A stretch of DNA of 64,000 nt from Candidatus Brocadiia bacterium (GCA_050015075.1 JBEKCB010000022.1:23478-87477), one strand, 5' to 3'. Counted from the first letter of the stretch, positions 15,671 through 55,012 are shown. The notes: generated by a model from the letters alone, not told the origin. A program made the numbers and translations.

Positions 15671-15758
15671 AATCGTCCTCGTCGTCGTCCTCGGCCTCGT
15701 CCTCGGTCGTTCAAAACGGCCGTTCGAGGCCGAGGACGACGACGAGGACGAGTACGAT
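15671..15758. repeat. 6-nt-period palindromic element (second copy)
   Basis: tcgtcctcgtcgtcgtcctcggcctcg ... cgaggccgaggacgacgacgaggacga. Confidence 0.8.
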
Positions 15759-20131: not shown

Positions 20132-20220
20132 GGACGATTCTCCTGCTGAAATGCGCGCATCGGCGTGGACATGAGACATGAGATTATCACTGAAGCGGGC
20201 GGTTGACAACTCACATGGCA

Positions 20221-20315
20221 GGAGATTGGGAAATTAGGAGATTGGGAAATTGGGACTTCGGCCGACAGTTATCTCTCCTAATTTCCTAATCTCCCAGTCT
20301 CCCAATCGCCCAATC
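20221..20315. repeat. 8-nt-period palindromic element (GAGATTGG)n...(CCAATCTC)n
   Basis: ggagattgggaaattaggagattgggaaattggga ... tcctaatttcctaatctcccagtctcccaatcgcccaatc. Confidence 0.8.
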
Positions 20316-20324
20316 GTCCTCAAG

Positions 20325-32784: not shown

Positions 32785-32814
32785 TTGACTTGTCTTGCGA
32801 CACACACCTATAAT
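32785..32814 (+). promoter_or_regulatory. Putative sigma70 promoter of the pil operon
   Basis: TTGACT-18 nt-TATAAT; a divergent TTGACC-16 nt-TATACT for ilvE lies at 32725-32698. Confidence 0.6.
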
Positions 32815-32929
32815 TGCGATGGATAAAAGCTGCCGCAGTTGTCCCGATTCACGGGATAGCGGCGGATTGGCCGAGGTGGGGAGCGTTTGTGACTTTTCCG
32901 GCGGTTGCAGGAAAGCACAGGAGCGCAAG

Positions 32930-34660: not shown

Positions 34661-34687
34661 TCGCCGAGTCAAGGAGAAAGACGAGAG

Positions 34688-35881
34688 ATGCAGATCAACA
34701 AGCTGCTGCAGACGGTGGTGAGTCAGAACGCGTCGGACCTGATCCTGACCGTGGCCGCCAAGCCCATGCTGCGGCTCAACGGCCGCCTCGTGGCGCTCCA
34801 GACGAAGGTCCTCGAACCGGACGATACCGTCGCACTGATGAGGAGCATCACCTCCGAGCGGTGCCAGCAGGAACTGCAGGAGGTCGGCTCCACGGACTTC
34901 GGTTTCTCCTACGGCGAGCAGGCCCGTTTCCGCGTCGCCGTCTTCAAGCAGCGCGGTTACACCGGCATCGTCCTCCGGCTGATCCCGAACAAGCTCCTGT
35001 CCTTTTCCGAGATCGGCCTGAGCGACGACATCCAGCGGCTGCTCTGGCGCCCGCGCGGGCTGGTCCTCGTCACCGGGCCCACCGGCTCGGGCAAGACGAC
35101 CACGCTCGCGACGATGATTGATTACATCAACATGAACCGCGACACGCACATCATCACCGTCGAGGACCCGATCGAATACTTCCATAGCCACAAGCGCTCC
35201 GTGGTGACGCAGCGCGAACTGGGCGTGGACGTGCCCTCCTTCGCGGAAGGCCTCCGGCGCGCCCTGCGGCAGAACCCCGACGTGATCCTCGTCGGCGAAA
35301 TGCGCGACCTCGAGACGATGGAGACCGCCATCAGCGCCGCCGAGACCGGGCACCTGGTCTTCGCCACGCTGCACACCAACTCGGCCGAGACCACGATCAA
35401 CCGCATCGTGGACGCCTTCCCGCCGCAGCAGCAGGAGCAGGTGCGCGTCCAGCTCTCCAGCAACCTGATCGCGGTCATCTGCCAGGCGCTCATCCCGGAC
35501 GTCACCGGCCACAAGCGCGTCGCCGCGTTCGAGATCATGATGCGCACCGACGCAATCAGCAACCTCATCCGCCAGCAGAAGGTCTACCAGATCCAGTCCG
35601 AAATCCAGACCGGCATGAAGCACGGCATGATCCTGCTCGACGACTCGCTCGCCAAACTCTTCCATGCCGGGCGCATCAGCCGTGAAGAGGCGATGAACCG
35701 ATGCCGCAACATCGAGGAAATGGCGCAAAAGCTCGCGGCGCCGCCGCGGGTAGGGCCTGGCGACGTGGCCGAAGCCGGTTCGGCCGCCGCAGCGCCCAAG
35801 GCCGGCAGGCCGCAAGTCATGATCGGGCCCGCCGCAGCGGCGGCGGCAGCGGCCGCGAAGAGGTCGCCCGAGAAGAAATAG
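34688..35881 (+). CDS. pilT: Type IV pilus retraction ATPase
   Basis: GPTGSGKTTT, HIITVEDPIE, QRELG, LRQNPDVILVGEMRD, AISNLIR (AIRNLIRE-like). Confidence 0.95.
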   Translation: MQINKLLQTVVSQNASDLILTVAAKPMLRLNGRLVALQTKVLEPDDTVALMRSITSERCQQELQEVGSTDFGFSYGEQARFRVAVFKQRGYTGIVLRLIPNKLLSFSEIGLSDDIQRLLWRPRGLVLVTGPTGSGKTTTLATMIDYINMNRDTHIITVEDPIEYFHSHKRSVVTQRELGVDVPSFAEGLRRALRQNPDVILVGEMRDLETMETAISAAETGHLVFATLHTNSAETTINRIVDAFPPQQQEQVRVQLSSNLIAVICQALIPDVTGHKRVAAFEIMMRTDAISNLIRQQKVYQIQSEIQTGMKHGMILLDDSLAKLFHAGRISREEAMNRCRNIEEMAQKLAAPPRVGPGDVAEAGSAAAAPKAGRPQVMIGPAAAAAAAAAKRSPEKK

Positions 35882-35934
35882 TTGCGATGTCCCGTCCCGC
35901 GCGATGACAACCTGACTGAGAGGCGATGCGACTC

Positions 35935-37764
35935 ATGGCTGACGAACGGAAACAAACGCCGATGGATGCCGGCGGCGAACCCGCGCAGCGCCCGCCGTCC
36001 CCGCCCGCCGCGCCGCCCATCGGACCGGGTGAAATTCCCGAGGCGCCCGAGGTCGGCGGCCGCAAGCTCATCGGCCAGATCCTCAAGGAGATGCGCCTCG
36101 TCACCGAGGCCCAGATCCAGGAAGCGCTCGCCACCCAGAAGCAGAGCGGCGGCGCCATCGGCGGCATCCTGATCAGCCTGAACTACGTGACCGAGCAGGA
36201 AGTGCTCACCGCCCTCGGCATCCAGGCCGGGATGGAGGTCGTGGACCTTGACGTGCTGGAAATCCCCGACGACGTGATCGCCCGCGTCTCGCCCTCGATC
36301 GCCTCGGTCTATCGCGTGGTCCCCACCAAGTTCGAGAACAACATCCTGACCGTGGCGATGGCCGACCCGCTCAACGTGAAGACGCTCGACGATCTGCGGT
36401 TCCTCCTCGACTGCGAGACCCACGGAGCGGTGAGCAACGAGCCGTCCGTGGCGCGCGCGCTCGACCGCTACTACTCCGGAATCCAGGAGTCGGTCGAGAG
36501 CCTCCTCGCCGAGCTCGATGACGGCACCATGGCCAAGGCGATGCACAACACGAGCGAATCCATTGACCTGCAGACCCTCGAGGAGATGGCCGACGCCGCG
36601 CCCGTGCGGAAGCTGCTCAACTACGTGCTCCTCGTCGCCATCCGCGACAAGGCCTCCGACATCCACTTCGAGCCGTTCGAGGACGAGTTCAAGATCCGCT
36701 ACCGCATTGACGGGGTGCTCTACGAGATGGTGCCGCCGCCGAAGCAACTGGCCATCGCGATCGCCTCGCGAATCAAGGTCATGTCCGAGCTCGACATCGC
36801 CGAGCGCCGCCTGCCTCAGGACGGCCGCATGGAGCTCAACATCAGCGGCAACCCGATCGAGCTGCGCATCGCCATCCTGCCGACGATGTTCGGCGAGAGC
36901 TGCGTCATGCGCGTGCTCGACCGCACCGTCGTCCAGCTCGACATCCAGAAACTCGGCCTGCGCGATGACGAGTTGCAGATCTTCGACGACCTCCTCAAGC
37001 TGCCCAACGGCATCATCCTCGTGACCGGCCCCACCGGCGCCGGCAAGACCACCACGCTCTACGCCGCCCTCAACACCGTCAACACGATTGACGTGAAGAT
37101 CATCACCACCGAGGACCCCGTCGAGTACGAGATTGACGGCATCATCCAGGTGCAGGTGAACCCGGACATCGGCGTCACCTTCGCCCACTGCCTGCGCAGC
37201 ATCCTGCGGCAGGACCCCGACAAGATCCTCGTCGGCGAAATCCGCGACGTGGAGACCGCCCAGATCGCCATCCAGTCCTCGCTCACCGGCCACGTGGTCT
37301 TCAGCACGGTTCACACCAACGACGCGCCGAGCACCGTCACGCGCCTGATTGATATGGGCCTCGAACCCTACATGATCACCGCCACGCTCGAAGCGGTGGT
37401 CGCCCAGCGCCTGGTGCGGCGCATCTGCGCGCGCTGCCGCAAGGACTTCACGCCCACCGAAGACATGCTCATGGAGCTGAACCTGCGCCCCGCCGACGTC
37501 CGCGGCAAACGGTTCGCCTACGGCCCCGGCTGCGACTACTGCAACAACACCGGGTTCAAGGGACGCATGGCGATTTTCGAGATCTTCGTCATGGACGACG
37601 ACATCCGCGAGATCATTATGAACCAGGGCTCCACGCAGGCCCTCCGCGAAGCCGCCATGCGCAAGGGCATGCGCACCCTGCGCGACAGCGGACTGCTCGC
37701 AATTTACGATGGTGAGACGACCATTGAAGAGGTCGTCCGCGAAACGATCCTCTCAGAGGTGTAA
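35935..37764 (+). CDS. pilB: Type IV pilus / T2SS assembly ATPase (PilB/GspE), copy 2
   Basis: ASDIHFEP, ERRLPQDGR, GPTGAGKTT, EDPVEY, LRQDPDKILVGEIRD, tetra-Cys motif. Confidence 0.92.
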   Translation: MADERKQTPMDAGGEPAQRPPSPPAAPPIGPGEIPEAPEVGGRKLIGQILKEMRLVTEAQIQEALATQKQSGGAIGGILISLNYVTEQEVLTALGIQAGMEVVDLDVLEIPDDVIARVSPSIASVYRVVPTKFENNILTVAMADPLNVKTLDDLRFLLDCETHGAVSNEPSVARALDRYYSGIQESVESLLAELDDGTMAKAMHNTSESIDLQTLEEMADAAPVRKLLNYVLLVAIRDKASDIHFEPFEDEFKIRYRIDGVLYEMVPPPKQLAIAIASRIKVMSELDIAERRLPQDGRMELNISGNPIELRIAILPTMFGESCVMRVLDRTVVQLDIQKLGLRDDELQIFDDLLKLPNGIILVTGPTGAGKTTTLYAALNTVNTIDVKIITTEDPVEYEIDGIIQVQVNPDIGVTFAHCLRSILRQDPDKILVGEIRDVETAQIAIQSSLTGHVVFSTVHTNDAPSTVTRLIDMGLEPYMITATLEAVVAQRLVRRICARCRKDFTPTEDMLMELNLRPADVRGKRFAYGPGCDYCNNTGFKGRMAIFEIFVMDDDIREIIMNQGSTQALREAAMRKGMRTLRDSGLLAIYDGETTIEEVVRETILSEV

Positions 37765-37776
37765 AGGAGGTCAACC

Positions 37777-39015
37777 ATGCCGACCTTTCGATTCGAGGCC
37801 ATGAACTCGCAGGGCCAGACGATCAAGAACGAGGTGGACGCCACATCCGAGGAAGAGGCGATTCAGAAGATCCGCGCGCAGAAGCTCTTCCCCACCAGCG
37901 TCAAGGCCAAGGTCGGCCGGCGCGGCCTGACGACCGGCGCGGGCAGAAAACGCAAGAAGAGCTTCGCCATCGGCGGCGTGAGCGCCAAGCAGCTCACGCT
38001 CTTCACCCGCCAGCTCTCCACGCTGCAGGACGCCGGACTTCCCATCGTCCGCAGCCTCAAAATCCTCGAGGGCCAGCTCAAGCCCGGCGTGTTGAAGAAC
38101 ACGCTCATCACCGTGACCGACGACGTCGAAGGCGGCATGACCTTCAGTGAGGCCCTCGCCAAGCACCCCAAGGCGTTCGACAAGCTCTACACCAACATGG
38201 TCCGCGCCGGCGAGGTCGGCGGCGTCCTCGACGAAATTCTCCAGCGCCTCGCCGACTTCCGCGAGAAGGCCCGCCGCCTCAAGAAGCAGATCGTCGGCGC
38301 GATGGTTTACCCGATCGCCGTCATCACCGTCGCCGGCGGCATCCTCTGGGGCATCATGACCTTCATCGTCCCCAAGTTCAAACAAATCTTCGTCGAGCTC
38401 GATGTCCAGTTGCCCACGATGACGCTGATGCTCATCTCGTTCTCCGACTTCATCAAGAACAGTTGGTACTGGATCCCGACCGGCATCATCGGCTTCATCC
38501 TCCTCGTCAAGGGCGTCGGCGCCACCAACCTGGGGCGCTACATCCTGGACAAGATCAAGCTGCGCATACCCTTGTTCGGCAGCATCCTCAACAAGGCCGT
38601 GATCGCGCGCTTCACCCGCACGCTCGGCACCCTCGTCGCCTCCGGCGTGCCCATCCTCGAAGCGCTGAACATCACCAAGGACACCGCCGGAAACATGGTC
38701 ATCTCCAGGGCCATCGGCCACGTGCATGACAGCATTCGTGAGGGCGAAAGCATCGCCGAGCCGCTCGCCCAGAGCAAGATCTGCGACGACATGGTGGTCA
38801 ACATGGTGGACGTCGGCGAGGAGACCGGCGACCTCGACAAGATGCTTCTGAAGATCGCCGACCAGTATGACGAAGACGTGGACCTGGCCGTCGCCGGCCT
38901 GGCGCACTTGATCGAGCCGATCATGATCGTCGTCCTCGGCGGCTGCGTCGGCTTCATTGTGATCTCGCTGTTCCTGCCCTTGATCAAGCTCATGAACAGC
39001 TTGGGCGGATCGTAA
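37777..39015 (+). CDS. pilC: Type IV pilus inner-membrane platform protein (PilC/GspF)
   Basis: FTRQLSTLQDAGLP, MVRAGEVGG, RFTRTLGTL, VGEETGDL, IEPIMI; AGGAGG RBS. Confidence 0.95.
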   Translation: MPTFRFEAMNSQGQTIKNEVDATSEEEAIQKIRAQKLFPTSVKAKVGRRGLTTGAGRKRKKSFAIGGVSAKQLTLFTRQLSTLQDAGLPIVRSLKILEGQLKPGVLKNTLITVTDDVEGGMTFSEALAKHPKAFDKLYTNMVRAGEVGGVLDEILQRLADFREKARRLKKQIVGAMVYPIAVITVAGGILWGIMTFIVPKFKQIFVELDVQLPTMTLMLISFSDFIKNSWYWIPTGIIGFILLVKGVGATNLGRYILDKIKLRIPLFGSILNKAVIARFTRTLGTLVASGVPILEALNITKDTAGNMVISRAIGHVHDSIREGESIAEPLAQSKICDDMVVNMVDVGEETGDLDKMLLKIADQYDEDVDLAVAGLAHLIEPIMIVVLGGCVGFIVISLFLPLIKLMNSLGGS

Positions 39016-39200
39016 GCGAGTGCGGAGTGCGGAGTGTTGAGTGCGGAGTTCGCGAGCGGATGAGCGGATTGCCGCGGTCGTCTGATTACTGCTCACAAAG
39101 CCAGGAGGCGCTACCCGTGCCAAGCCAAAGAAATGGTTATTCTGTACTCCGCACTCTATACTCCGCACTCCGCACTCCGCGCTCCGCACTCTGCGCTCGC
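39016..39200. repeat. 7-nt tandem-repeat palindrome (GAGTGCG)n...(CGCACTC)n with the pilin RBS and start codon in its loop
   Basis: Left arm 39016-39050, right arm 39146-39200; about 32 bp near-perfect pairing; AGGAGG at 39103 and GTG at 39117 lie between the arms. Confidence 0.9.
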
Positions 39201-40421
39201 GCGTTCACGCTCGTCGAGATGCTGACGGTCATCGCCATCATCGGCATCCTTGCCGCAATCCTCATCACCGCCGTGCCGACCGTCATGCGGAACGCGCGCA
39301 TCGCCACCGCCAAAGCCGACATCAGTCATCTCTACCAGGCGGCGACGTCCTACCAGTTGGACTTCGGCGCCTTCCCGCCGGACTGCACCGCCTTCTGGAC
39401 GAACGGACAAGTGCAGCAACCGGACTGCCCGTTCCCCGGAGTTTGGAACAACCAGTCCGCCCCGTACAACGCCTCGCTCAGCCCGAACGAGTTGCTGATG
39501 TGGTACTTGACGATGCAGTACAGCACCGGGCAGCTTAACCCCGTTACGAACAGTTATCCGGCCTCGGGTTACCCGGCCGGTTACCCGGCCGACCCAACCC
39601 TGCAGGGAAACTGGCCGGGTAGCCCTTCCAGCCCTTCCGCCGCCACCGTTGTGTTCTCGCACGGCGTCAACGCCGGCCCCTACTACGACATGAAGGCGAA
39701 GCAGAAAACCGATGTCAACGCGAACGGCTTCTGGGAGTTCATGGATCCGTGGGGCCGGCCGTACATGTACCGCGCCTATCCGCAGTTTGCCCAGGTCATA
39801 GGCGCCACCCCGCCTCCGAATTCGGCCCCCTACACGGTCATCCTGACGCTTGGCAACCTTGCTGGTCCCAGCCCTTACGGGCCCGAGGTCGGCACCGTTT
39901 GCAACACCTACACCTACTACGGCGGCTACAACTTTTACGCGAACTCGCCCCTGGCCGGCACGACCGGTTCCATCCAGCTCACCGGTTTCAGCAATCCCCT
40001 CTACAACGGCACCTTCGCGTTCCAGGGCGTGCCATACAATCAGGGCACGAACCCGAACAATAATCAGGTCGTTTTGACGTTCGCGGCGAATCCGGGGCCC
40101 GCCGGCACGCCCGGCTACTACAGCTTCCCGCTCCACAACAAGCAGACCTGCGACATCTATAGTCTGGGTCCCTACGGACTCACCCGCGCCGCTTCTTCAA
40201 TGCCGAATGCCAATAACGCGCCCCAGGAGTGGAAGCCCACACACGGCGGCACTTCGGTCGCGGCCGACATGGCCCTCAAGAACTCGTCGCTCGACGCCAC
40301 TTCGCTGGACGCATGGGCCCAGGTCTGGGGCACGCCCGGCGACGGAAACGATATTAACGTGACCAGCGGCAACATCATCGTCAACGTCCAGTACCAGGAC
40401 AATATCTGTAACTGGAATTGA
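39117..40421 (+). CDS. Large type IV prepilin-like protein (GspG/PilA-like)
   Basis: RA|FTLVEMLTVIAIIGIL N-methylation motif, DPWGRPY and IYSLGP GspG-like motifs; alternative in-frame GTG at 39027. Confidence 0.88.
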   Translation: MPSQRNGYSVLRTLYSALRTPRSALCARAFTLVEMLTVIAIIGILAAILITAVPTVMRNARIATAKADISHLYQAATSYQLDFGAFPPDCTAFWTNGQVQQPDCPFPGVWNNQSAPYNASLSPNELLMWYLTMQYSTGQLNPVTNSYPASGYPAGYPADPTLQGNWPGSPSSPSAATVVFSHGVNAGPYYDMKAKQKTDVNANGFWEFMDPWGRPYMYRAYPQFAQVIGATPPPNSAPYTVILTLGNLAGPSPYGPEVGTVCNTYTYYGGYNFYANSPLAGTTGSIQLTGFSNPLYNGTFAFQGVPYNQGTNPNNNQVVLTFAANPGPAGTPGYYSFPLHNKQTCDIYSLGPYGLTRAASSMPNANNAPQEWKPTHGGTSVAADMALKNSSLDATSLDAWAQVWGTPGDGNDINVTSGNIIVNVQYQDNICNWN

Positions 40422-40464
40422 AGCGGCGCCTGAGTCCCGGAACGCCGCCAAGGAAAGCCCGCAC

Positions 40465-41022
40465 ATGAGCAACCCGATCGCGCGATCCCGCCTTGCCCCG
40501 CAGCGCGCGCGCGCCATGACGCTGACCGAGATCATCGTCGTCATGTCCATCATGATCATCCTCGTCAGCGCCGTGGTCGTCGCCGTCTTCCGCGTCTCCT
40601 CCAAGGGGCCGGTGGAAGGCACCAAGGGCTTGCTCCAAAAGCTCGCCGTCGGCCTGGAAGCCTACCGGGCCACTTACCGGATGTATCCGCCCATGGATCC
40701 CAACGATCCCTCTTCCCGGTTGAACCTCAAACAGCCCATACAGCTCGCGCAGGTCCAAGTGACCTCGGGCGTGCTCTGGCAGGCGCTCGAATTCAGCGGC
40801 GAGGGACAGTTCATGGCCCCGGTCTCCGCCGCCTACAAATCCGCGGGCGGCGTCTTCACCGATTCACGGACCGGCTCGGTGCAGACGTGGTACTACTACC
40901 AGGACGCGTGGCTGCAGCCGCTGCTCTACGTTTGCCCGGGGCCCAACTACACGCAGTACACCTTGACCTCCGGCGGCCAGGACCTGATCCTGGGCACGGC
41001 CGACGATATTACGGTGCCCTGA
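40465..41022 (+). CDS. Type IV prepilin-like protein (GspG-like)
   Basis: RA|MTLTEIIVVM; C-terminal DAWLQPL.Y...LTSGGQDLILGTADDI. Confidence 0.88.
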   Translation: MSNPIARSRLAPQRARAMTLTEIIVVMSIMIILVSAVVVAVFRVSSKGPVEGTKGLLQKLAVGLEAYRATYRMYPPMDPNDPSSRLNLKQPIQLAQVQVTSGVLWQALEFSGEGQFMAPVSAAYKSAGGVFTDSRTGSVQTWYYYQDAWLQPLLYVCPGPNYTQYTLTSGGQDLILGTADDITVP

Positions 41023-41025
41023 CAC

Positions 41026-41074
41026 AATGCAGAATGCAAAGTGCAAAATGCAAAGTGCAAAATGCAAGCTGCAA
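41026..41074 (+). repeat. Seven tandem heptamers (AATGCAA/AGTGCAA) encoding the pilin leader; single arm only
   Basis: aatgcag aatgcaa agtgcaa aatgcaa agtgcaa aatgcaa gctgcaa. Confidence 0.9.
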
Positions 41075-42130
41075 CACGCCCGAAGGAGCGGATCACCCGC
41101 CTTTACGCTGATCGAAATGCTCGTCGTCCTCGGCATCGTCGCCCTGGTCGCCGCCATCACCCTGCCGATGGTCGTCCCGATCCTGCGCACGCGCACGCTG
41201 GACTCGGCCGTGGACACCGTCAAGACCTCGTGCAACCTGGCCCGGAGCATGGCCCTCCAGCAACGAAAAATGGTGAACCTCACTCTCCTTCAGCAAACGG
41301 ATTCCACTCACGGCCCCGGCGTCGTTCTGACCGGCTACAGTTTTGCGGGCTCCGTGACATCCAACGGGCCTGTCGATACCGTTTATGACATCAATCAGAA
41401 CTGGACGGCCGGCGCTTTTCAATATAACCAGATATTGCTGTTCTCGCCCGGGAACCCGATTCCGCAGGTCAGGAAGATTCAAAGCAATACCCTGAACACA
41501 ATCACCATCTATGAGCAAGGCGGCACCCCTTATAATCCCAATGATCCCAACGACCCTAACGAGTCGGACTGGAGCCCGCAGCCGGTGGCCGGGAACGTCT
41601 ATGTCGTCATGTCTTCCACCAGTTCCGCCCAGCCCTATTGCATTCATTATTTCGGCAACTACTACAACGGCGTCCTGGGCAACGGCCTCCCTGCCGCCGC
41701 CGACGATGTCAGGTTCAACGTGATGAAAACTTTCTCGCTCTACATGGGCGAGACCATAGAATATCTTCCGCTGGGCTGCCAGTTCGACTTCACCGCGGGA
41801 TACAGCGCGTGGAATTCTCTCACGTCGTACACTCCCGGCAAAGCGGTCGCGGACAAGGGCATCGTCTACTACTGCCTCTCCAACACCATCGGCGTCGAAC
41901 CGCCCAACGCCAACTGGCAGGCGTTGACCGCGTGGACGTACGTGTTCCTGCCCGATGGCGAGGCGTGGACCCTGCTGCCCACGGCGCAGAACGTGCGCGA
42001 CCCGAATTGGTTCCTCACCACCTGCATGAGCAACGGAACCGTCTCCGGCCCGAAGATCTGGGGCCCGCAGAACCTCATGTCCGCCACCATCGTCGTCTAC
42101 GGGACGACCGGGCAGGTGATATCACAATGA
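41027..42130 (+). CDS. Minor prepilin, FimT/GspH-like, with inserted modules
   Basis: PA|[19 protein letters not shown]; VFLPDG and C-terminal GTTGQV motifs. Confidence 0.85.
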   Translation: MQNAKCKMQSAKCKLQHARRSGSPAFTLIEMLVVLGIVALVAAITLPMVVPILRTRTLDSAVDTVKTSCNLARSMALQQRKMVNLTLLQQTDSTHGPGVVLTGYSFAGSVTSNGPVDTVYDINQNWTAGAFQYNQILLFSPGNPIPQVRKIQSNTLNTITIYEQGGTPYNPNDPNDPNESDWSPQPVAGNVYVVMSSTSSAQPYCIHYFGNYYNGVLGNGLPAAADDVRFNVMKTFSLYMGETIEYLPLGCQFDFTAGYSAWNSLTSYTPGKAVADKGIVYYCLSNTIGVEPPNANWQALTAWTYVFLPDGEAWTLLPTAQNVRDPNWFLTTCMSNGTVSGPKIWGPQNLMSATIVVYGTTGQVISQ

Positions 42131-44529
42131 ACAGATTGCGGATTGCAGATTGCGGATTGCGGATTAAACGACGGGCTGCCGCCCTCCGAATGCCGCCAGT
42201 CGTTCATTCCACATTCCGCACTCGCCGTCGCACGGCTGGCCTGACGTTGATCGAAATCCTGATCGCGATGTTCATCTTCCTCGTCGGCTGCCTGGGCGTC
42301 CTCTCGGTGTTCCCCGTCGCCATGAACAGCGCCGGGCGCGTGCTCGGCGAGACGCGCGGCAACATGCTGGCCCAGTCCGCCGTCGGCCAGATCACCGCCG
42401 ACTGCCGCGTCAATTTCGACTGGTCCGCCGCCACAGGTTCTGCGGGTGCCTGCGCTGCAGGGGCAAGCTCCACCACGTTGAAGCGTGCGGTCGCGTCCAC
42501 ATCATTTAAAAACACGCCTTACGCCCAAGACTATTTCGTGACGATGCTCGATGGTCCCGGCCGTGGCCAGAGTCGCTTCATCATCAGCGACGACGGAACC
42601 ACGCTCACCGTTGCACCCCCATGGACGCAGGTCAACTTCACAAGCCCTGCGACCACGTGGACGTACCCGGGCAGTCTCCTGGCACTGAGTCCCACCGCCT
42701 ATGAGCACTACAGCATTACGCGCATCGGCCTGCCGGAACGGCCGCTCCTTGCGGGTTCGACAACCACTCCAGTTCCAGGGGAGCAGATTCTGCAGGGCTG
42801 GGCGGGATCGCCAGGGCCTTACTATGTTGCCCCGTGGCCGGCGTCCGGCACCCCCAACTACAACTACGGATCATTCGGCCTGAACCGCGACCTCGCGGTC
42901 CGGCAGATTGCGTCCGGCAACGGCTTTTACGCCGGCATCGCAAATCCGTTGAATGTCCCGACCAACGCCATTCAAGTTGACCCATTGGTGGCGTACTATG
43001 GCACAGCCACGTCTGCCATTCCGCCGCCGGCGGCGCTGGCGCTGCAGTACCCGCAGTGGCTTAATGCTACGCCGTACGTCGCGGGCAACATGGTCTCGGA
43101 CAAAGGCAGTTACTACATTTGCCTCGTAGCCAACACCAACGCCGAACCGCCCAACCCGTACTGGCAGAACGCGGCCTATGTTACTCTTTATGACGCCAAC
43201 GCCAATCTGGGTGCTCTTTGGCCGGTAGCCCCGGCAGCGCAACTCTCAAATTATTACCAAGTCCGCATCGTCAGCGGCTCGGGCGCGGGCCAAGTCCGCA
43301 CGATTACGGGCAACACGACAAACCAACTTATTGTTACTCCGAGTTGGGCGATTCTTCCCGATGGTAGTTCCGTTTACGAATTCGGTTGGGCGAACACGAA
43401 CCCGGCTAACCCACCACTTGCACCGCAACCCGCGACATGGTGCGCGCAGTTGTATCCGGTCCCGCCTGTGGCACCGCCACCATGCTCCGTCAGCGGCAAC
43501 ATTTTGACCGACGGCGGCGCAGCCTGGGTTGCTAACCAGTTCCAAGGTAAATACGTCTATATTACGACGCCCGGCGAAGGCCAGGCGCGCGCCATTGTCT
43601 CCAATGGCCCGAGCCAGCTCGTCGTAACGCCCGCCTTCACGGTGTCAGGTCCTCTGAACTATATCATTACCGAAAGCCGCGGCTACGTCCTCATCACCAG
43701 CGGCCGCGCGACGAACCGGCTGTTTCCCATCGCCTGGGACCAGATTGACCAGACCGATGGACATTTGATCGTCTGCGCGGGGACTGATTTCACGTCGCTC
43801 ACCGGCATCACAGCCGCCCGGAAGCCCAGCACCAACATTGCCACCGGGTTCCTCTATAACCTCCAGGACGCTACGACTTTCACGGTCATCGGAAACTGGA
43901 GCCAGACTTCGCTCGCATGGCCTGCCAACGACACCGTGGCGCCTTATCCTGCCATGCCGTTGATCCTGAACGCCGTGCCGGACGGCAGCCCCATTAATCC
44001 CCTTTTATGGACAGCGCCGCCGCCGCAGCCCGCGGCTCCGTTCTGCCCACCCTGGTTCAACACGCTGAATGTCTGTGCTCAGCCATATAACGCGGGGACG
44101 GTTTCCGTGACCCAGGGCAATCCGAACGTGACCGCCACGCCGGGAACCCTTTGGTTAGCCAACGTCAGCCCCGGCAATATTTTCATCGGGCCGGATGGCG
44201 CGCTTCATCGCATCCTCAGCGTAGGATCCAATACCTCGCTGACGCTCGCCGACAATTACGAAGGACAGAACCAACCCGTGGGCGGCTATACGATCTTCTC
44301 AGGCCCGCCGAACCGCCTGGCGCTGGACCAGTACAACGTGTCGGCGCAGGGCGGCGGCGCCTACACCTCCGAGTACAGCTACGGCGTGGTCTTCAGCGAC
44401 AGCGGGACGGATCCGTCCTTGCCGGTGCGGGTGGACGTCTTCGTCTGGCGCAATTTCGACACCACCAGGGATTTCGTCGAGAACCAGAAACCGGTCGGGC
44501 ACATGGCCGGGTACATTAGAAGGCCTTGA
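42127..44529 (+). CDS. Giant minor prepilin, PilV/GspI-like (800 aa)
   Basis: ATGA overlap with the upstream gene; AG|LTLIEILIAMFIFLVGCLGVLSVFP; C-terminal VRVDVFVWR. Confidence 0.85.
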   Translation: MNRLRIADCGLRIKRRAAALRMPPVVHSTFRTRRRTAGLTLIEILIAMFIFLVGCLGVLSVFPVAMNSAGRVLGETRGNMLAQSAVGQITADCRVNFDWSAATGSAGACAAGASSTTLKRAVASTSFKNTPYAQDYFVTMLDGPGRGQSRFIISDDGTTLTVAPPWTQVNFTSPATTWTYPGSLLALSPTAYEHYSITRIGLPERPLLAGSTTTPVPGEQILQGWAGSPGPYYVAPWPASGTPNYNYGSFGLNRDLAVRQIASGNGFYAGIANPLNVPTNAIQVDPLVAYYGTATSAIPPPAALALQYPQWLNATPYVAGNMVSDKGSYYICLVANTNAEPPNPYWQNAAYVTLYDANANLGALWPVAPAAQLSNYYQVRIVSGSGAGQVRTITGNTTNQLIVTPSWAILPDGSSVYEFGWANTNPANPPLAPQPATWCAQLYPVPPVAPPPCSVSGNILTDGGAAWVANQFQGKYVYITTPGEGQARAIVSNGPSQLVVTPAFTVSGPLNYIITESRGYVLITSGRATNRLFPIAWDQIDQTDGHLIVCAGTDFTSLTGITAARKPSTNIATGFLYNLQDATTFTVIGNWSQTSLAWPANDTVAPYPAMPLILNAVPDGSPINPLLWTAPPPQPAAPFCPPWFNTLNVCAQPYNAGTVSVTQGNPNVTATPGTLWLANVSPGNIFIGPDGALHRILSVGSNTSLTLADNYEGQNQPVGGYTIFSGPPNRLALDQYNVSAQGGGAYTSEYSYGVVFSDSGTDPSLPVRVDVFVWRNFDTTRDFVENQKPVGHMAGYIRRP
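42134..42225. repeat. Heptamer repeat element in the pilin leader, (GATTGCG)n ... cgttcattccacattccgcactcgc
   Basis: Four and a half GATTGCG-type units at 42134-42165; three degenerate complementary-type units at 42205-42225. Confidence 0.8.
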
Positions 44530-44531
44530 GT

Positions 44532-44619
44532 ATGCAGAGCGCAAAGTGCAGAGCGCAGAATGCAGAGTTGGCACGGAAAGGCCCAGGTCTTCGCCGTTCA
44601 TTCTGCACTCTGCACTCTC
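44532..44619. repeat. Heptamer palindrome in the pilin leader, (TGCAGAG)n...(CACTCTG)n
   Basis: Five units at 44533-44568; loop cggaaaggcccaggtcttcgccgttc; three units at 44599-44619. Confidence 0.85.
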
Positions 44620-46040
44620 GATCAGCGTTCACGCTGATCGAGCTGATGGTCGCCGTCGGCCTGATGGCGATACTGCTCACCATGATCGCGGTGATTTTCT
44701 ACGAGGCCACACAGGCGTTCCGCGTGGCGCGGGCGTCCATCGAGATCCACGAGAGCGCCCGCTCGGCGCTGAACGCGCTGGTGAACGACCTCACGGCCGC
44801 CGAGTTCACCTCGTATGACAATGGCGTCCAGGGTTATTTCGCGCTGAGCGCGGGGCCTGCCGATCCCGCGCTCGGCTCTTCCCCGCCCGTTTGGAACAAT
44901 GCGGCGACCTACGCTGTGAATAGTCGCGTGATCAGCGGAGGCGTTGTGAATAATGGCGTGATCAGCGGAGGAAACGAGTACATCTGCATTACCGCGAACT
45001 TGAACCAGCAACCGCCGAATGCAAACTGGCAGTTGCTCGGCCCGTGGATTGTGCCGGTCGCCGTCACCGGCGCCCCCATCGCCGTTGACACGCTGACGTT
45101 CACGACTCTCGCCCCGCAGCCGGGCGCGCGCGACGCCACCCCGGAGGCGGTCGAGCAGCTTGCCCTCGTGCGATATGCCCTGGAGTGGGACGGCGGCTAC
45201 GCCACCATTCCCGGCAGCGCCGCCCCGCAGCCGACGTATAACCTGGTCAAGCGCGTGCGCTTCCCGTGCACCAACGACCCGAACCTGAATATGGACCAGT
45301 TCGCCTGGGCCGTAATCGGCCCGAACGGACAGCCGGTCCTGCCGTATCAGTACCTCCTGCCGTTGGAGTACACATTTCACACCTCGCCGCCGCTGGCTTC
45401 CAACGATCCCGACGTCATCCTCGACGAAGCGGGACTGCGGTACGCGCAGTCCGAGGTGATCGCCTTCCACGTGCTCTCCATGAACGTGCGGCTCTTCTGC
45501 CTGCCGCTGAAGAATCTTTCGGCGGAAACTTCCGAAGCCTTCGTCGAAGCAGGTTTCGCCAGCGCACCTGGAGGAGCCACTCCGCCCACGTTCACTGATA
45601 CGACCAAGAACTGGCTGCAGCCCTGGCAACTGCCTATCGCAACACAGACCCTCCGAATCTATGCCGGGACGGGGGCAAGCCAATACGCAATGATTCAGAG
45701 CAACACGGCCAACGTGATTACGCTGAATGCCACTGCGCCGACTCTTTCGGCGACCGGCGGAACCTGGGCCCCGCTGCCGGACACCACATCGCAGTACCGC
45801 ATTGACGGTCTCCTGTCGAGCCTGTTCCCCGCTCCAGCCAGCCCGCCGCCGCCCAGCACGCCGCCTCCGCCGCCGCCGGGCTGGTATCAGCGGGTATCAG
45901 CGGCGGGCAGTTATAACTTCTTAGGAACGACGTATCGTCCGCCGGCGGTCGTCGAACTCACGCTGCAAACGACCGATCTCCGGGCGACGCGCGCGTTCAC
46001 GTTCACGCAGAGATTCTATATACCGGCATCGGAAAGATGA
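44532..46040 (+). CDS. Large minor prepilin, PilW/GspJ-like
   Basis: SA|FTLIELMVAVGLMAIL, ARSALNALVNDL, DTLTFTT, C-terminal PPAVVELTL...FTQRFYIP. Confidence 0.87.
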   Translation: MQSAKCRAQNAELARKGPGLRRSFCTLHSRSAFTLIELMVAVGLMAILLTMIAVIFYEATQAFRVARASIEIHESARSALNALVNDLTAAEFTSYDNGVQGYFALSAGPADPALGSSPPVWNNAATYAVNSRVISGGVVNNGVISGGNEYICITANLNQQPPNANWQLLGPWIVPVAVTGAPIAVDTLTFTTLAPQPGARDATPEAVEQLALVRYALEWDGGYATIPGSAAPQPTYNLVKRVRFPCTNDPNLNMDQFAWAVIGPNGQPVLPYQYLLPLEYTFHTSPPLASNDPDVILDEAGLRYAQSEVIAFHVLSMNVRLFCLPLKNLSAETSEAFVEAGFASAPGGATPPTFTDTTKNWLQPWQLPIATQTLRIYAGTGASQYAMIQSNTANVITLNATAPTLSATGGTWAPLPDTTSQYRIDGLLSSLFPAPASPPPPSTPPPPPPGWYQRVSAAGSYNFLGTTYRPPAVVELTLQTTDLRATRAFTFTQRFYIPASER

Positions 46041-46156
46041 GAATGCAGAATGCAGAGCGCAGAGTGGAAGCGGAAAGGCCAAGGCCGTCGCCGTTCATTC
46101 TGCATTCTGCACTCTGCACTCTGCACTCGCCCGTTCATAGGCAGGAAGCGTCATGA
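46037..46156 (+). CDS. 39-aa mini-ORF spanning the heptamer palindrome ([39 protein letters not shown])
   Basis: Translated by hand. ATG 46037 overlaps the upstream TGA, and its TGA 46154-46156 overlaps ATG 46153. Below the ORF-track size cutoff. Confidence 0.45.
   Translation: MRMQNAERRVEAERPRPSPFILHSALCTLHSPVHRQEAS
46040..46130. repeat. Heptamer palindrome between the PilW-like and PilX-like genes
   Basis: gaatgcagaatgcagagcgcagagtg ... cattctgcattctgcactctgcactctgcactcgc; loop closely similar to the 44532 element. Confidence 0.87.
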
Positions 46157-49100
46157 TGCATGAGAAGATGCGCAGGGCTGATCGCGGCGTGATCCTGATC
46201 GTCATCGTCGGCGTGCTGGCGGTGCTCAGTCTGCTGGCGGCGACATTCGGGATGATCGCGCGGCTCGAACTTGCCGGCAGCCGCAACCAGACGGAACACG
46301 AAATGGCGCGCGAGGCCGCCCACGCCGGCGCCGAATACCTGCTCAACGCCTTGCAGTCCTGGCTCAACGGCAGTTCCATGACCTCGGGCCCCGTGCCGAC
46401 CTTTCTCCCCAACGTCTCGGACGCCGACGGCATCCTGCAGTACAAGCGCGACGGCGTAAAGGTCTATTTCGCCGTCAACAGCACAGTCCCGCCCGGCTCG
46501 GTGACGCCCGATTGGCTGCAGGGCCTCGGGCTGGCGGATGCCGGCATGTTCAACCTCAACGCCATGGGCTTTGCGAGCGACCTGGGCAGCGACGTCAACC
46601 CGGACATCCGCTACACGTCGTTCGATTGCAGTCTGGTCCGGCTGCTGAAGTCGCGGTTTGCGACCGTGACCGCAGGCGACATCAACAATCCCAGCAACAC
46701 GGGCATTGACAATTATCGCGGCGCCGTGTACCCGGCCCCCGCAGTTCCAACCTTCACGAGTGCCCTCGAGCAGCAGCGCGTGGCGATCCTCCTCTCGCAG
46801 GCGCTCATGAATTGGCGGTACGGCCCGGACGGAGTGCCCGGGACCGCCGGCACGGAGGAACGCCGGTTGGGCCACCTGCCGCGCTGGAACAGCAAGCTCG
46901 GCGCCACGAGCATCAACCTGGGCATCCACGATGCCGCCGGCAATCCCTATCCGCCTGGCGGCCCGGCCTGGGGCGCCAGCTCTAATCCTAACGACACGCT
47001 GGCATCGCTCTTGATCACCTGGGCCGGTCCGGGTTTCTTTCCCACGACATATTTCGAGCCCGGCGGCCCATTGCCCGTTCCTCCGGCTCCTCCGACGGGA
47101 GAATGGCGTTCGTACAGCAGCACCGACGCGAAATGGGGCAATGACCAGGGCCTTCCCGTGCCAGGTTTGTTCTGGGGCATCGTGGCCCTCAGTCCTCCCA
47201 GTCTTCCATCCAACACGACAACGATCTACGCCGATAAGACCCAGCAGCCCGGCTGGCACGATTGGCCCGCTTCGATCTGGAACAACTACTACGTCTACTT
47301 CGCCACCGGCCCCGACAAGTGGCAGCGAGCCCAGATACAGACGAATACTGCCAATGTCTTGACCCTGGCCACACCGCTGCCGAACGCGCCGAATGCCGGA
47401 GACTCCTTCTGTATCTGCACGCCGCAGGCGTACGTGGGCCTGTTGAACCAGCGCTGGGTGACCGGCGACCTGAACGAGGGCGACTTGGTCCCGAACGCGA
47501 TGGCCTGGCCGAACGGCGCCCTCGCGACGGAGGGGAACGTCTGGGACCTGCTGGTGGATAACGACACCTTGCTGTTCCCCGGCCCTTACGGCGCGGTGGC
47601 CAACATGGGCACCTGCACGGCGCTCGTGGCCCCCAACGATAACTCGCTGTATGACTCGACCAAAAACGGGATCTGGACCTCGAGTGCTTTTCTGAACAAG
47701 GGCTACGTCGTTCACATCTACGGGGGCACGGGAAGAGGCCAGGTGAGAACGATCTATGACTATGACAGCACGAGGAACCGACTCGTCCTTTACAATCCCG
47801 TTACGAGCACCCCGCCCGTTACAGTCAACCCGGTTTTCTGGACGAGCGGGAACAGCCCGGACACGACCAGCCAGTATCGAATCGAGTGGCCCGACAACAA
47901 CCTGACGTCGAAGTTCCAGCCCAACAATCTCCAGGGCGACGACCGGCTCTATCTTTCGCTCGGCAGCCTGCGCGACTCCGTGATCGTCCCGGCGTTCGTC
48001 AGCGACGGCCTCAGCAGCGCCAACGCGCAGGCCGTGGCGGACATACTCCTGCCCTATTTCCTGCCGTATCTCAGCGTCTCCACGCAGGCCATCCAGGCCA
48101 GCCAGTCGCTCTGCAGCATCAACGACTGGGCGGTGGACGGCGTGGACAACGACGCGAACGGAGTGGTGGATGATAATAATAATCCCCCGGCCGGTTCGGC
48201 GCCGTCTTCGAATGCGCTGACGGAACCGCAGTACGAGTGGAATTCCCCACAGGGCACCAGCAACCGCGAGACACAGCTTGCCCCGAGGCTTTACAACAAG
48301 CTGGGCCTGTACACCTGGGCCCACGCCGGCGCAGCGACCACAAGCACCACGACGCGGATCCAGCAGGCGGCGCAACTCGTCGCCAACATCATAGATTTCC
48401 GCGACCCGCCGCCGACCGCCACGCCGCCGGCCATCCCGCCGCCCGACGTGCCGACCAAGCTCACGATCAGCGCCCTGGATCCGACAGCAGCCTTGCTCGG
48501 GGTCCCCGCCAACACCGTCGTGTACGGCGCCAAAGGGCTGCACGTTACGCAGGTCATGCCTTCGCCGGACCCCATTTACAGCGCCATCCCCAACGGCGGG
48601 GAAATGATAGACAACGGCAGCGGGGCGCCGACTGAAATCCCTGCTGGCGACTGGGTTTGGAATGCGGCCGGGCATTGGGACGTCCTCGATTGGACCCACA
48701 ATGTCAACGGTCTGGGGCCCCGAGCGACATTCACCTTCAACAACCTGATGCCCGGCTATTACGCGATGCGCCTGATCGGCACGCCCAGCACCTTCACGCT
48801 GACCTACCCGATCGGCGGCACCGCCTACACCGTAACCCCCGCGATCGCCGAACCTGATAACCCCGCATTGAGCACCGCTTTTGTCCGCAAGCCCGCCGAC
48901 GCCTTCGGCTTCACCCGCCTGGTATGCTTCCAAGTCGTATCCGGCGGCACTCTGAGTTTTCAACTGCAGGCTCCGGTCAACTCCCAATTCTGGGGCTTTG
49001 CGCTGTGCGCGCAGTACATTCAACTCACCAACATTGCCACACACGACATCCGGCTGGATGCCCTGACCGTGGCGACCGACCAGACTCAGGTCGCGACGAC

Positions 49101-50898
49101 CGGGCCAGGCATCCTCCCCTGGCAAGCCGCCGGCATGTATACGCGGGCTGACGGCGGATACGCTGACCTTCGCCGGATCCCCGGCGCGGCTGTCGGCGCC
49201 CTCGGCTTTGTCACCGATAGTGGAGGAAATCCAGCCCCGACGCTCTCGACCGCGACATTTCCGATCAACTACGGGACTTATGTCATTTGCATGTCTGAGG
49301 AATCGTACGAGAAACAATGGACCGCCCAGAAAGGCGACCCCGACTATAGCACCACGCCCAGCACCTATAACCCCGGCGGCCTGGTCCCGCCGCCCACCAT
49401 AAACGGCGACGGCATCTGGGGCGACGCGCCGAACGAAGCGTACCCGATCTATCCTTTCGGCGACCTTAACTCCGACCAGTACACCATGGCCCTGTTGATG
49501 GGCGTCAAGGGCTCGCCGACGGCGTACAAACCCTCCGTTGCCGTCAGCTATGTCGCCGGCGCCCAGATCGCCCTGGTTGCGGGCGGCCCGGCGGCGGACG
49601 GCAGTTACGTGGACGGGGCGATTCCGGTTATGAATGTCCCGCCTCATCTGGACGCGACATACCATAACGAACTCAGTTGCTACTCCAGCATCGAGAAGAC
49701 GGTCATCCTGCAGCCCACCTGGGATACGACACCCCAATACGGGCCGTATTGGGCGCCCTACGTGACTGCAGCGGCCGGCACCATACCGACAACCTCGTCG
49801 CCTCAGGGGCTCGCTGCCTCTCAGAATACGCTGGTCATCGGCCAGGATGATTCGCCCCGAACCCCGGCGGGCAACACATTTCGAGCCTGCCTGAACAAAA
49901 ACTATGGATACTCCTCGAGCATTTATGTCGGTATGATATGGGATCCCGCTGCAGTGCCGACATGGTTCGGTGCGGGTACACCGCCCTGGCCGAACTCGTC
50001 CCCTCCCGTTTGGTATACCGATAAACGGTGGGCCACTCTGGCGAAGCCGTCTCTCCTGGCTTTGCAGTATCGCGCCTTTCCGTTCATCTTGAATCGTCCG
50101 TACCCGACCACCGGTTGGCTGGGCCTGGTGCCAACGAGCAATACCGATGCCGTGAATGCCGCAACCGGAAATCCAACCGTATTGGGCTCATGGCGCACGA
50201 TTGATCCCAACCCGAACCCGCCGGTCGCCGGTCAAGTGACGCCGCCGGCGACGCCTGAGCAGCTCCTCGGCACGCTGATGTCCAACGCCACCGTCGGCGG
50301 AGTTTACGCGCGTTTCAACATCAACACCGCGCCGGTGGATACGCTCAAGGCCGTCTTCCCCGACGCAACCGCACAGGCCATCGTCTTTGCCCGTAACGCG
50401 CGGGCGAAGGGCTTTGCGCCGACGACTTATCCCTGGTACTCCGGCGTGCTGTCGCCGGCGCTCGCCAATGCTTCGTGGGCGACGTGGGACGAACTTCTCA
50501 ACGACCCGCTTTTCCAATACTCTGCGACTGTCAGCGGCTACCCTCCTCCGCCTCCGCCGAACGTCGGCGGCATCGGATTCTACGATTGTCACGATCCTGT
50601 CAACCCGCTGACGGACCTCGTCTCCAACGCCGACGCCGGCGCGGGCACCTATGCGGACGGGTTCCCGGACAACTCGAACGAGAAAAAAGAGTGGTTCATG
50701 CGCTACTCGAACCTCTTCTGCCTGCAATCCACCTCCTTCCAGTTCACCGTCGCCGGACTGGTCTACGCGGACAGGCCGTGGGACCCGGTGACGATGCAGA
50801 ACAACGAGCCGGTCGCCATGGTGCGCATCGAGGTGGACGTGGACCTGAGCACCGGCACCCCGAGCATCGTCCACTTCCGGTACCTGACACAACAGTAA
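46153..50898 (+). CDS. Giant PilX/GspK-like pilus tip protein (1581 aa)
   Basis: RG|[17 protein letters not shown] lacking Glu5 as typical of PilX/GspK; AREAAHAG; FNINTAP...AQAIVFAR GspK-like motif; [13 protein letters not shown] Ca-binding-like loop. Confidence 0.85.
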
Positions 50899-50907
50899 GG
50901 ACGAGAC

Positions 50908-51044
50908 GAATGCAAAATGCGGAGTGCAGAATGCAGAATGCAGAACAGTACGGCAACGGGAAGAGCCGCCGGCGGCGAAACCGTCGTTCATTCCGGAGTC
51001 CACACTCTGCGCTCTGCACTCTGCATTCTGCATTCCGCACTCGC
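50908..51044. repeat. Heptamer palindrome in the pilin leader, (GAATGCA)n...(CACTCTG/CATTCTG)n
   Basis: Five units at about 50908-50945; ccgtcgttcattcc; six units at 51003-51044 abutting the A-F-T-L codons. Confidence 0.9.
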
Positions 51045-52046
51045 GCGTTCACGCTGATCGAGATGCTGGTCGTTATCGCCATCATTGCGGTCCTGGCCGG
51101 CCTCCTCCTGCCGGTACTGACGAAAGCCAGGGAGGAAGCCCGCAGGAAAATCTGTCTTAATAATCTGCGACAAATCGGCGCGGCCTGCATTGCATACCAG
51201 GACCCCAACGGCGATTACTTCCCTGCGTTCCTGCAACAGGCGACCTATAACAATACGGCGCCGCCTCCGCCGCTATGTACGCTGAACGGAATTTCATGGC
51301 CATGGCCGGGCCAGATGGTTATGACGCCCCCGCAGCCGCTGTCCTGGAACTCTTCTAATTCCTACGGCGCAGGCGCCGTCGTCTCGGACTATGGCTTCAA
51401 CTACGTTTGCCTCGTACCGAACACGGGCTGCGAACCGTACTCGGATTGCTCGCATTGGCAATTGCTGCAGGGCTTCGATGGGACTTTTCAGCCAATGCCT
51501 TCGCTGGCCTGTCTGTATCCCGCGTATATTGACAACGTGAAGGTTTTTGGGTGCCCATCTACGCCGGATAAGCCGCTGATCGCCTTTGCCTACTACAATG
51601 GAGCCAGGCATACTTGTTTTGGGTTCGACGCATATAGCTCCGGCATACATGTCAATACCGTGGACCCGGCGACGTATACCGGGAATGAAGTGAGCGGCAC
51701 GAACAAGTGCAGTTATTTCTATGACGAGCTGACGAGCTTTCGTAATGCTGATCCCGACCTCGCCGTTGCCTGCGATGCGGACGGTCAGACGTGGACAAAC
51801 TCAAACGGCAAGTATCCGCCATACGCAAGCATATGGTTTCGTACGCCTGTAACGAACCACAAAAACGGCCAAAATGTGATGTATTTCGACGGCCACGTGA
51901 AATGGGCGGAAACCGCATACTCAAGTTCTGACGCAACCGACAACATCTTCTGCCCAAACGGAAGCATCGGCGGCGGCCAGTGGAATCCGGACACCGACTC
52001 GTATATGTGGGATGGCTTCGACAGCCGAATCCCACAATCACAATGA
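50910..52046 (+). CDS. Prepilin-type protein, DUF1559 / H-X9-DG family
   Basis: RA|[44 protein letters not shown]; [17 protein letters not shown]. Confidence 0.9.
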
Positions 52047-52073
52047 TTTTGTCATAACAAAACGGGATGTGTG

Positions 52074-54861: not shown

Positions 54862-55012
54862 ACCACCAGCAGGCACAAAGACGCCAAGAACGACCGAACC
54901 ACAGATGAACACAGATGAGCACAGATACGAATTTCTTTCTTGGCCCCATCTGTGTTCATCTGTGTCCATCTGTGGTTCCCAAATTCGTCGCCGTTCTTCG
55001 TGCCTTGGTGGT
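54862..55012. repeat. Nested palindromic elements: inner 10-nt (CACAGATGAA)n arms, outer ~9-nt CACAAAG/CTTCGTG-type arms
   Basis: aaccacagatgaacacagatgagcacagat (54897-54926) pairs with atctgtgttcatctgtgtccatctgtggtt (54948-54977); outer accacc..ggcac..caagaacg pairs with cgttcttcgtgccttggtggt. Confidence 0.85.

Follow-up and report, generated by a model that had tools for sequence, protein, structure and literature searches.

The minor pilins GspI/J/K and FimT-PilVWX form tip complexes. Pilins may also carry grafted domains, and one survey describes such modular pilins as widely distributed, counting over 1,200 proteins in 264 architectures that include lectin modules and a fusion to peptidase S74 (PMC8179133). 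Another kind of module is found in the side fibre of an F-type pyocin; according to the paper accompanying structure 25VE, the N-terminal domain of this fibre is OB-like and resembles the T5 decorating domain. Together with the stem helix that follows it, this domain fastens the fibre to the central shaft; the barrels encircle a coiled coil in a pseudo-sixfold ring, and receptor binding is the task of a separate distal domain (PMC13455828). A further study likewise describes conservation of the attachment regions at the N-terminus and divergence of the distal ends (10.64898/2026.02.24.707460). Here we describe a domain homologous to the pyocin anchor within a modular pilin. It is encoded in a stretch of 64,000 nucleotides, referred to below as the window, from a Candidatus Brocadiia bacterium (GCA_050015075.1 JBEKCB010000022.1:23478-87477); Ca. 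Brocadiia is a class of Planctomycetota. An uninterrupted open reading frame of 800 amino acids (42127..44529, plus strand, as are the pilus genes and their modules below) encodes a PilV/GspI-like minor pilin, of which 44086..44295 translates to 70 residues, amino acids 654-723, that constitute an optional, in-frame, FCCH-like cassette of the tail-fibre-anchor type with a predicted six-stranded beta-barrel fold.

The tail-fibre-type barrel and its host pilin

When 87 residues around the cassette were searched against phage protein families, 13 PHROG families were matched (best E 1.3e-13), seven annotated as tail or tail fibre and six of unknown annotation; in 12 of the 13, the match lay at the N-terminus of the profile, and families 2712, 1980, 22609 and 28473 are of proteobacterial phage side fibres. 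By tblastn, 199 of 50,697 phage records were matched at E<=1, the best at E 6e-9 with 45.7% identity; in the four matching records inspected, the match coincided with the beginning of a gene of tail-fibre or lectin type, and the cultured phages recovered infect Proteobacteria. Two PDB sequences were matched below E 0.001, viz., 25VE, the side fibre of F2-pyocin (residues 5-64, E 1.7e-5), and 23GD, the distal tail protein gp20 (residues 3-69, E 1.3e-4), and significant homology to the PyoF13-type anchor extends across the barrel of approximately 70 residues. A search of 1.84 billion representative proteins returned 1,130 matches at E<=0.001. The domain was located within the first 15 residues in 129 of the 150 top relatives examined, one pilin fragment and one C25-peptidase protein being among these 129 carriers, and all 22 N-terminal relatives tested had a tail-fibre or tailspike PHROG among their top five. 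A first-pass annotation, made from the sequence alone, had recognized a tail-fibre-like domain here from an N-terminal pattern of many proteobacterial phage tail fibres and had offered comparison with phage tail proteins as the check; the pattern fits the consensus derived from 73 aligned sequences, and tail-fibre N-termini were indeed among the top matches.

As controls, one of the barrel repeats resident in this pilin gave no phage match in tblastn, and four of the pilin's resident modules gave no PHROG match below E 0.03. Shuffled 70-mers scored at most 16.1 bits compared to 94.6 bits for the real sequence with a hidden Markov model (HMM) built from matches to this same query, a test which controls for composition only. 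Pfam gave no match for the 70-mer at E<=1 and none for the domain in the 73 aligned members, its E1 FCCH model included. Rows P0037 (a spurious repeat) and P0153 (a weak leucine-rich repeat match) were left out of the domain sets, and a search for longer relatives retrieved only three proteins.

The AlphaFold2 model of the cassette, for which the input alignment consisted mostly of fibre-type sequences, is a small six-stranded barrel with a predicted local distance difference test (pLDDT) value of 95.4. Its best viral structural match (BFVD) is a tail fibre (TM-score 0.92), and the model aligns with the FCCH domain of the E1 enzyme Uba1 at a TM-score of 0.70. A wide fold search returned tailspike inserts, the lambda gpJ insert, tail tubes, T5 pb9 (4jmq residues 93-168), the P22 I-domain and FCCH with Z values of 5.5-7.9; none reached 8, and values below 8 are at a common level according to the search tool. 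Foldseek found no match in the PDB at E<=0.001 for the models of the cassette or of the full-length pilin, neither 25VE nor 23GD turned up in the fold searches, and Atlas features pointed only to unnamed clusters for the cassette (0.93-0.94) and gave scores below 0.9 for one resident repeat. The E1 FCCH-like Greek-key barrels of virions (gp13/gp39, T5 pb9, gpJ, P22 I-domain, tailspikes) have the same fold as the cassette but only 8-23% identity to it, and a common fold says nothing of function. In published work, the six-stranded Greek-key barrel is an outward-facing decoration of tail tubes (PMC13576161), and barrels of this fold contribute to polysaccharide binding by tailspikes (PMC10653864; PMC12632334), their contribution to catalysis being marginal (PMC10653864).

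Compared to the anchor of the F-type pyocin PyoF13 (25VE/25VJ), the cassette is homologous over the whole barrel and has the same turn motif. However, whereas the fibre domain is N-terminal, the cassette is internal, present as a single copy in a non-trimeric pilin, devoid of a following stem helix and situated outside a virion or tailocin locus. It is followed by native pilin sequence in which no helix of four or more residues is predicted, and the PHROG matches, which in fibres continue beyond the barrel, end at about residues 723-726. By sequence and fold the cassette is a member of the fibre anchor family, but it has neither the N-terminal position nor the stem helix of that family, and the protein is not a tail fibre. 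The view that no prophage lies nearby was borne out for the reading frames scanned, as none of 39 hand-picked non-pilin or distal open reading frames of the window (>=150 amino acids) matched PHROG virion, lysis or integration families at E<=1e-8. For annotation, a "tail fibre" match in pilins of this kind implies neither a prophage nor receptor binding.

The host protein has a class III signal peptide, with Gly at -1 and Glu at +5, and carries the N-methylation motif of prepilins (Pfam N_methyl, 24.6 bits vs. a cut-off of 21.2); the PilV model TIGR02523 matches it at E 4.7e-6 and 27.1 bits, under the equivalog cut-off of 52.2. Residues 68..800 of the full-length model gave a discontinuous match to EpsI, XcpV and GspI (Z 7.0-7.2, root-mean-square deviation [rmsd] 2.7-3.3, 79-86 residues aligned). 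With these GspI/PilV (pseudo)pilins (EpsI, 2ret; XcpV, 5bw0; GspI, 3ci0) it shares the cleavage motif, the helix plus three-stranded sheet, and a gene position between FimT/GspH-like and PilW/GspJ-like genes; it differs in its length of 800 residues, compared to 83-89 in the solved chains, as well as in its sub-threshold TIGR02523 score. The mature N-terminal helix (42241..42408) comprises residues 39-94 after the Gly38 cleavage site (41-94 in the model), and three C-terminal strands (44374..44517; residues 750-797, modeled as 750-757, 767-775 and 789-797), into which most of the invariant alignment columns fall, would complete the pilin core. As modeled, this core is split around approximately 650 residues of cargo, all of it between the helix and the C-terminal strands. 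The cassette lies between two low-confidence linkers (pLDDT<50 at residues 590-654 and 723-748), the first of which is Pro-rich (43894..44085, residues 590-653).

Three resident barrel repeats precede it. Repeat 1, of the G-x-G-Q-x-R type (42436..42720, residues ~104-198), was assigned from its strand pattern and a score of 70.7 bits with a local repeat HMM that had included it in its training set; its fold alone gave no match. Repeat 2 (42985..43383, residues 287-419) matches 4jmq residues 88-168 (Z 6.5, rmsd 2.3, 71 aligned), and repeat 3 (43441..43674, residues 439-516) matches 24qj residues 389-470 (Z 7.8, rmsd 2.7, 73 aligned) and 8gtc_P. Both match the same stretches of 4jmq, 24qj and 8gtc as does the cassette, and at the level of models at least two resident modules of the pilin have its fold. 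Nested inside repeat 2 is a carbohydrate-binding module (CBM) of the CBM5/12-like, chitin-binding type (43054..43176, residues 310-350; Pfam E 1.3e-4, below gathering), which superposes on 2d49 with an rmsd of 0.9 over 42 residues (Foldseek E 0.19). The resident barrels were present in all 24 PilV orthologues tested and the CBM in only eight of them. Among Atlas structures, a resident barrel had neighbours in phage hub proteins and in two clusters, one of Nitrospirota pilins and one of dockerins. The possibility that the cassette arose by local duplication of these repeats was rejected because they are barely alignable to it (phmmer, no match; hhalign, E 0.016, probability 3%); the two appear to share a fold without detectable recent ancestry. 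The resident repeat was also seen, in up to six copies, in unnamed proteins of 876-978 amino acids (the set P0174-P0178, P0180 and P0181) and once in a protein of this set named "phage tail protein"; the older resident barrels may be shared with phages too.

Presence, exchange and origin of the cassette

On the tree of PilV orthologues, six of 25 carry the cassette, a frequency that is inflated by the retrieval of P0004, P0005, P0006 and P0039 with a cassette or flanking-region query; the 19 without it include both GTDB loci, and only one of 18 informative orthologues found solely by the full-length profile is a carrier. P0001, P0004, P0005, P0006 and P0039 have it in the same loop, and P0157 has two copies at a different loop. 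It is in frame at the same site in the independent records P0004, P0005, P0006, P0007 and P0039, and copies among PilV proteins are 65-75% identical. Cassette-free orthologues join the same flanks directly, i.e., the difference is a clean indel, and five presence/absence changes are needed on a tree built without the cassette; left out of this backbone tree were P0003 (a near copy), P0007 (a cassette-bearing fragment) and P0170 (truncated before the site). P0158 lacks the barrel and keeps the flanks while its sister P0006 (SH-aLRT 99) has the cassette, which suggests a precise loss in P0158 on what was a quick tree with a non-monophyletic outgroup. Exchange extends to other pilins. In the PilW homologues P0010 and P0182, a tail-type barrel aligns to the loop that in the PilW of the window holds a CBM5/12-like module (the PilW of L001 aligns to this CBM-like loop but scores below 8 bits with the local CBM HMM), and PilX homologues carry one copy (P0041) or three copies (P0052). 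The cassette is an optional, in-frame module exchanged among PilV, PilW and PilX. Outside of pilins, the module was found in central tip proteins (Phage-tail_3) and other virion-like proteins, and in multiple copies in C25-peptidase/SdrD, PKD and beta-helix proteins that are cellular-looking, a label resting on the domain content of relatives.

This arrangement may be compared to the modular type IV pilins of the survey (PMC8179133). As in S. sanguinis PilB (vWA) and PilC (lectin), the GspK insertion and the N_methyl plus S74 fusion, modules are grafted onto a pilin core; in the present pilin, however, the cargo interrupts the pilin fold instead of following it, is arranged in tandem with nesting (no fewer than four barrels and a CBM5/12) and is exchanged among PilV, PilW and PilX. 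The S74 fusion offers an earlier example of a pilin that carries a phage-tail-type domain (PMC8179133). S74 is the tail chaperone family PF13884, which was seen in tail fibres. Entry IPR030392 of the pilin survey is presumably this PF13884 family. InterPro-based surveys would miss the cassette because it has no Pfam model, and a literature search, with most subscription journals outside its coverage, found no paper on a fusion of a tail-fibre barrel and a pilin. The finding is of a domain family without a Pfam model that is common to virion fibres and type IV pilus tips, and of a minor-pilin set that acts as a cassette system, with one loop in which either the tail-type barrel or the CBM5/12-like module can take the place of the other. 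The surprise is limited, as the concept of modular pilins is established and the hosts appear to be uncultured.

With respect to origin, the window copy has a mean identity of 0.56 with the other pilin copies, 0.48 with N-terminal copies of the fibre type and 0.35 with those in surface proteins; the comparison set was chosen by likeness to the window copy and its alignment made with an HMM based on N-terminal copies, a procedure which favours a phage donor. By sequence, the closest non-pilin relatives are tail-fibre N-termini. The turn GP[DN][GAS] is present in 10 of the 13 copies from pilins, in 75 of the 128 that are N-terminal, in 1 of 5 tip-protein copies and in 1 of 4 annotated phage copies, and in none of 24 surface and 11 other internal copies. 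A fibre-type donor is favoured because of these identity means and motif counts, and a phage source for the cassette is likely. The direction of transfer is no more than likely because the module is not phage-specific, being found in surface proteins, PilW and PilX and having same-fold resident repeats beside it. Of the first-pass proposal that a phage module was recruited onto a pilus, the homology and the uptake of a discrete module stand, and the phage source is retained as a likelihood. A single clade of the 13 pilin copies was not rejected (approximately unbiased test, p 0.688; 91 of 185 rows used), a result which does not demonstrate a clade. Recent transfer was considered and rejected given that GC content, GC content at third codon positions (GC3) and codon adaptation equal those of the rest of the gene; GC3 is 0.73 in the cassette vs. 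0.74 elsewhere, and codon adaptation is ordinary, with 25 of 58 pilin windows scoring lower.

The strongest competing account bears solely on origin and does not conflict with the function proposed below: a pool of barrels common to surface proteins and virions, with two-way traffic, from which the module reached the pilin by way of a cellular protein. Ig-like domains, which are shared by phages and bacteria, provide a parallel. The multiple copies in C25-peptidase/SdrD, PKD and beta-helix proteins agree with such a pool, as do the same-fold resident repeats of every orthologue tested and the Nitrospirota pilin cluster. However, the surface-protein copies are less similar to the cassette and lack the turn motif, the resident repeats can scarcely be aligned to it, and in most of the top relatives the domain is N-terminal. 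A cellular origin thus retains a substantial share of the probability, albeit less than that of a phage source.

Proposed function and competing accounts

The cassette is a mobile tail-fibre-anchor barrel in a loop of a modular pilin; the explanation favoured here is that it probably serves there as tip-displayed binding or spacer cargo. The barrel is an in-frame insertion at a permissive loop of the PilV/GspI pilin, and comparison of orthologues shows the surface loops of pilins in this planctomycete lineage to be display sites that gain, lose and swap cargo, including the cassette, the older barrels and CBM5/12. By analogy with H/I/J/K minor pilins, PilV would be positioned at the tip of a type IV filament, retractability being supported because PilT is present, and the barrel would be held there on its flexible Pro-rich tether. 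Most probably it would be cargo that binds a surface through a glycan or protein, or a spacer extending such cargo, and would thereby tune adhesion between strains. Its donor would plausibly, and in our estimate rather more probably than any cellular source, have been a phage or tailocin side-fibre gene, at a time long enough ago for the compositional signal to be lost. The binding or spacer role is proposed because of the swap with CBM in PilW and the participation of same-fold barrels in polysaccharide binding by tailspikes. Gained, lost and exchanged as it is among the pilus proteins of related bacteria, the cassette represents an add-on of a new type for modular pili. Natural pairs with and without the cargo are available for the study of its function, namely P0006 and P0158, and the PilW of the window vs. 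P0010 or P0182.

A number of observations weigh against this explanation or its phage-donor component. The closest solved relative, the F-pyocin side fibre, uses the domain as a protein-protein anchor and not as a ligand binder, and the glycan-binding tailspike barrels are relatives at the level of fold only (Foldseek E 0.04-0.05). The majority of PilV orthologues do without the cassette, and the full-length pilin model is of moderate quality (pLDDT 65). In addition to the bias of the comparison set noted above, the turn motif as written occurs in just the one of four annotated phage copies, and 98 of the 181 forks of the 73-column domain tree were left open.

The barrel might instead be a neutral or purely structural passenger, a stable fold tolerated in a permissive loop that adds bulk at most or, in a variant of the same idea, surface variation against pilus-binding phages. 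Its absence from 19 of the 25 orthologues and its apparently precise loss in P0158 are consistent with this, as is the decoration of tail tubes, capsids, hubs and Dit proteins by the same fold without a ligand being known (PMC13576161). However, a passenger would not be expected to be kept in frame at 65-75% identity among PilV copies, to be placed repeatedly in three different pilins, or to occupy the CBM site in PilW, and even with its variant included this account appears rather unlikely.

It is less probable again that the anchoring function has been retained, with the barrel docking to a coiled coil or to other barrels and thereby recruiting a secreted adhesin or enzyme to the tip or cross-linking pili. 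The ring of F-pyocin barrels around a coiled coil (PMC13455828) and the subfamily turn motif kept by the pilin copy would fit such a role, but the stem helix by which fibres insert into the shaft is missing, the barrel is present singly in a pilin that is not a trimer, and no partner gene was seen in the operon. A broader version, to which we likewise accord only a low probability, holds that the whole barrel-studded tip is built from virion decoration domains and that the docking barrel, captured by a planctomycete lineage from a phage or tailocin, is an exchangeable tip cassette with its docking kept; were this true, pili would be armed with interchangeable partner proteins in the way that virions are with side fibres.

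The first-pass annotation had suggested an adhesin scaffold or a phage decoy. An adhesin role could not have been inherited from the phage role, since the fibre domain is the anchor and the distal domain binds the receptor. A decoy or other anti-phage module is very improbable; beyond the phage homology itself nothing speaks for it, and a decoy should mimic the host receptor rather than the phage's own anchor, whereas this domain is virion-proximal and is neither a receptor mimic nor a receptor-binding domain. Moreover, the matching cultured phages infect Proteobacteria while the syntenic relative is a member of Ca. Brocadiia, and no literature was found that combines phage decoy, pili and tail fiber. 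An artefact, whether misassembly or a prophage remnant fused by chance, has a negligible probability and is refuted by the orthologues that carry the cassette in frame at the same site, with the ordinary codon usage and the lack of virion genes among the scanned reading frames also arguing against it.

The surrounding pilus gene cluster

The host gene belongs to a run in the order pilB-pilT-pilB-pilC, a pair of G-like pilins, the H/I/J/K-like pilins and a final two pilins. The assembly genes pilB/gspE, pilT, pilB/gspE and pilC/gspF (32795..39015) were assigned with NCBIfam/TIGR profiles and provide the PilT, PilB and PilC components of a type IVa pilus system; PilT exceeded its cut-off (TIGR01420, 449.7 bits vs. 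319.1), and the PilB and PilC matches were strong but under the equivalog cut-offs and equally close to GspE and GspF. In this order, pilT is flanked by the two PilB/GspE ATPases (32795-37764). PilMNOPQ and the prepilin peptidase PilD were not among the window reading frames scanned. Naming of these frames with NCBIfam gave mostly housekeeping genes. A scan of genomes yielded two loci from 47 candidate stretches, one in a metagenome-assembled genome (MAG) of Ca. Brocadiia and the other in a Planctomycetota MAG; the former has the same gene order down to kdsA, with PilW and PilX 70 and 78% identical, respectively, and this synteny by itself makes a Ca. Brocadiia-like planctomycete the most likely source of the window.

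Two GspG/PilA-like pilins (39027..41022; Pfam T2SSG and N_methyl, TIGR01710 below cut-off) are followed by a FimT/GspH-like pilin (41027..42130), which carries a single resident barrel repeat together with a CBM-like module. Downstream of PilV are the PilW/GspJ-like pilin (44526..46040), in which the loop of residues 121-169 (44886-45032) holds a CBM5/12-like module, a 1581-residue PilX/GspK-like pilin without a tail-type barrel (46153..50898), and two further pilins, one DUF1559-type and another, with CBM5/12 modules (50904..53291). The PilW loop scored 27.2 bits with a local CBM HMM trained without PilW, Pfam itself giving no match; CBM_5_12 was above gathering in the last pilin (27.1 bits) and at E 0.008 in the preceding, DUF1559-type pilin. 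In all, CBM5/12-like modules were seen in five pilins of the operon (41800-41925, 43054-43176, 44886-45032, 51345-51425 and 52824-53140), the last with two copies, and judged from sequence this recurrence suggests binding to chitin or another glycan. A 30-bp tandem duplication (44915-44971) lies within the PilW module. The first G-like pilin has a beta-rich insert (39780-40139), and a stretch similar to it occurs in the PilV homologue P0173; the insert had no PHROG match and no Pfam match below E 0.05, and we take it to resemble another FCCH-type repeat.

Heptamer tandem repeats, often as inverted pairs, were found at 39018-39198, 41026-41074, 42134-42165, 44532-44618, 46040-46128 and 50908-51042, where for most of the pilin genes they overlap with the 5' end or the leader peptide and blur the calling of start codons; homologues with similar pilin leaders were found. 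Of seven such regions tested, three gave much stronger folds than did mononucleotide-shuffled sequences (z -9.4, -7.2 and -4.6), and the repeats may be elements similar to repetitive extragenic palindromes or regulatory hairpins. Other short, inverted-looking tandem-repeat pairs with units of 6-10 bp are located in intergenic regions at 10386-10417, 11402-11492, 14660-14842, 15673-15757, 20220-20320 and 54900-54974.

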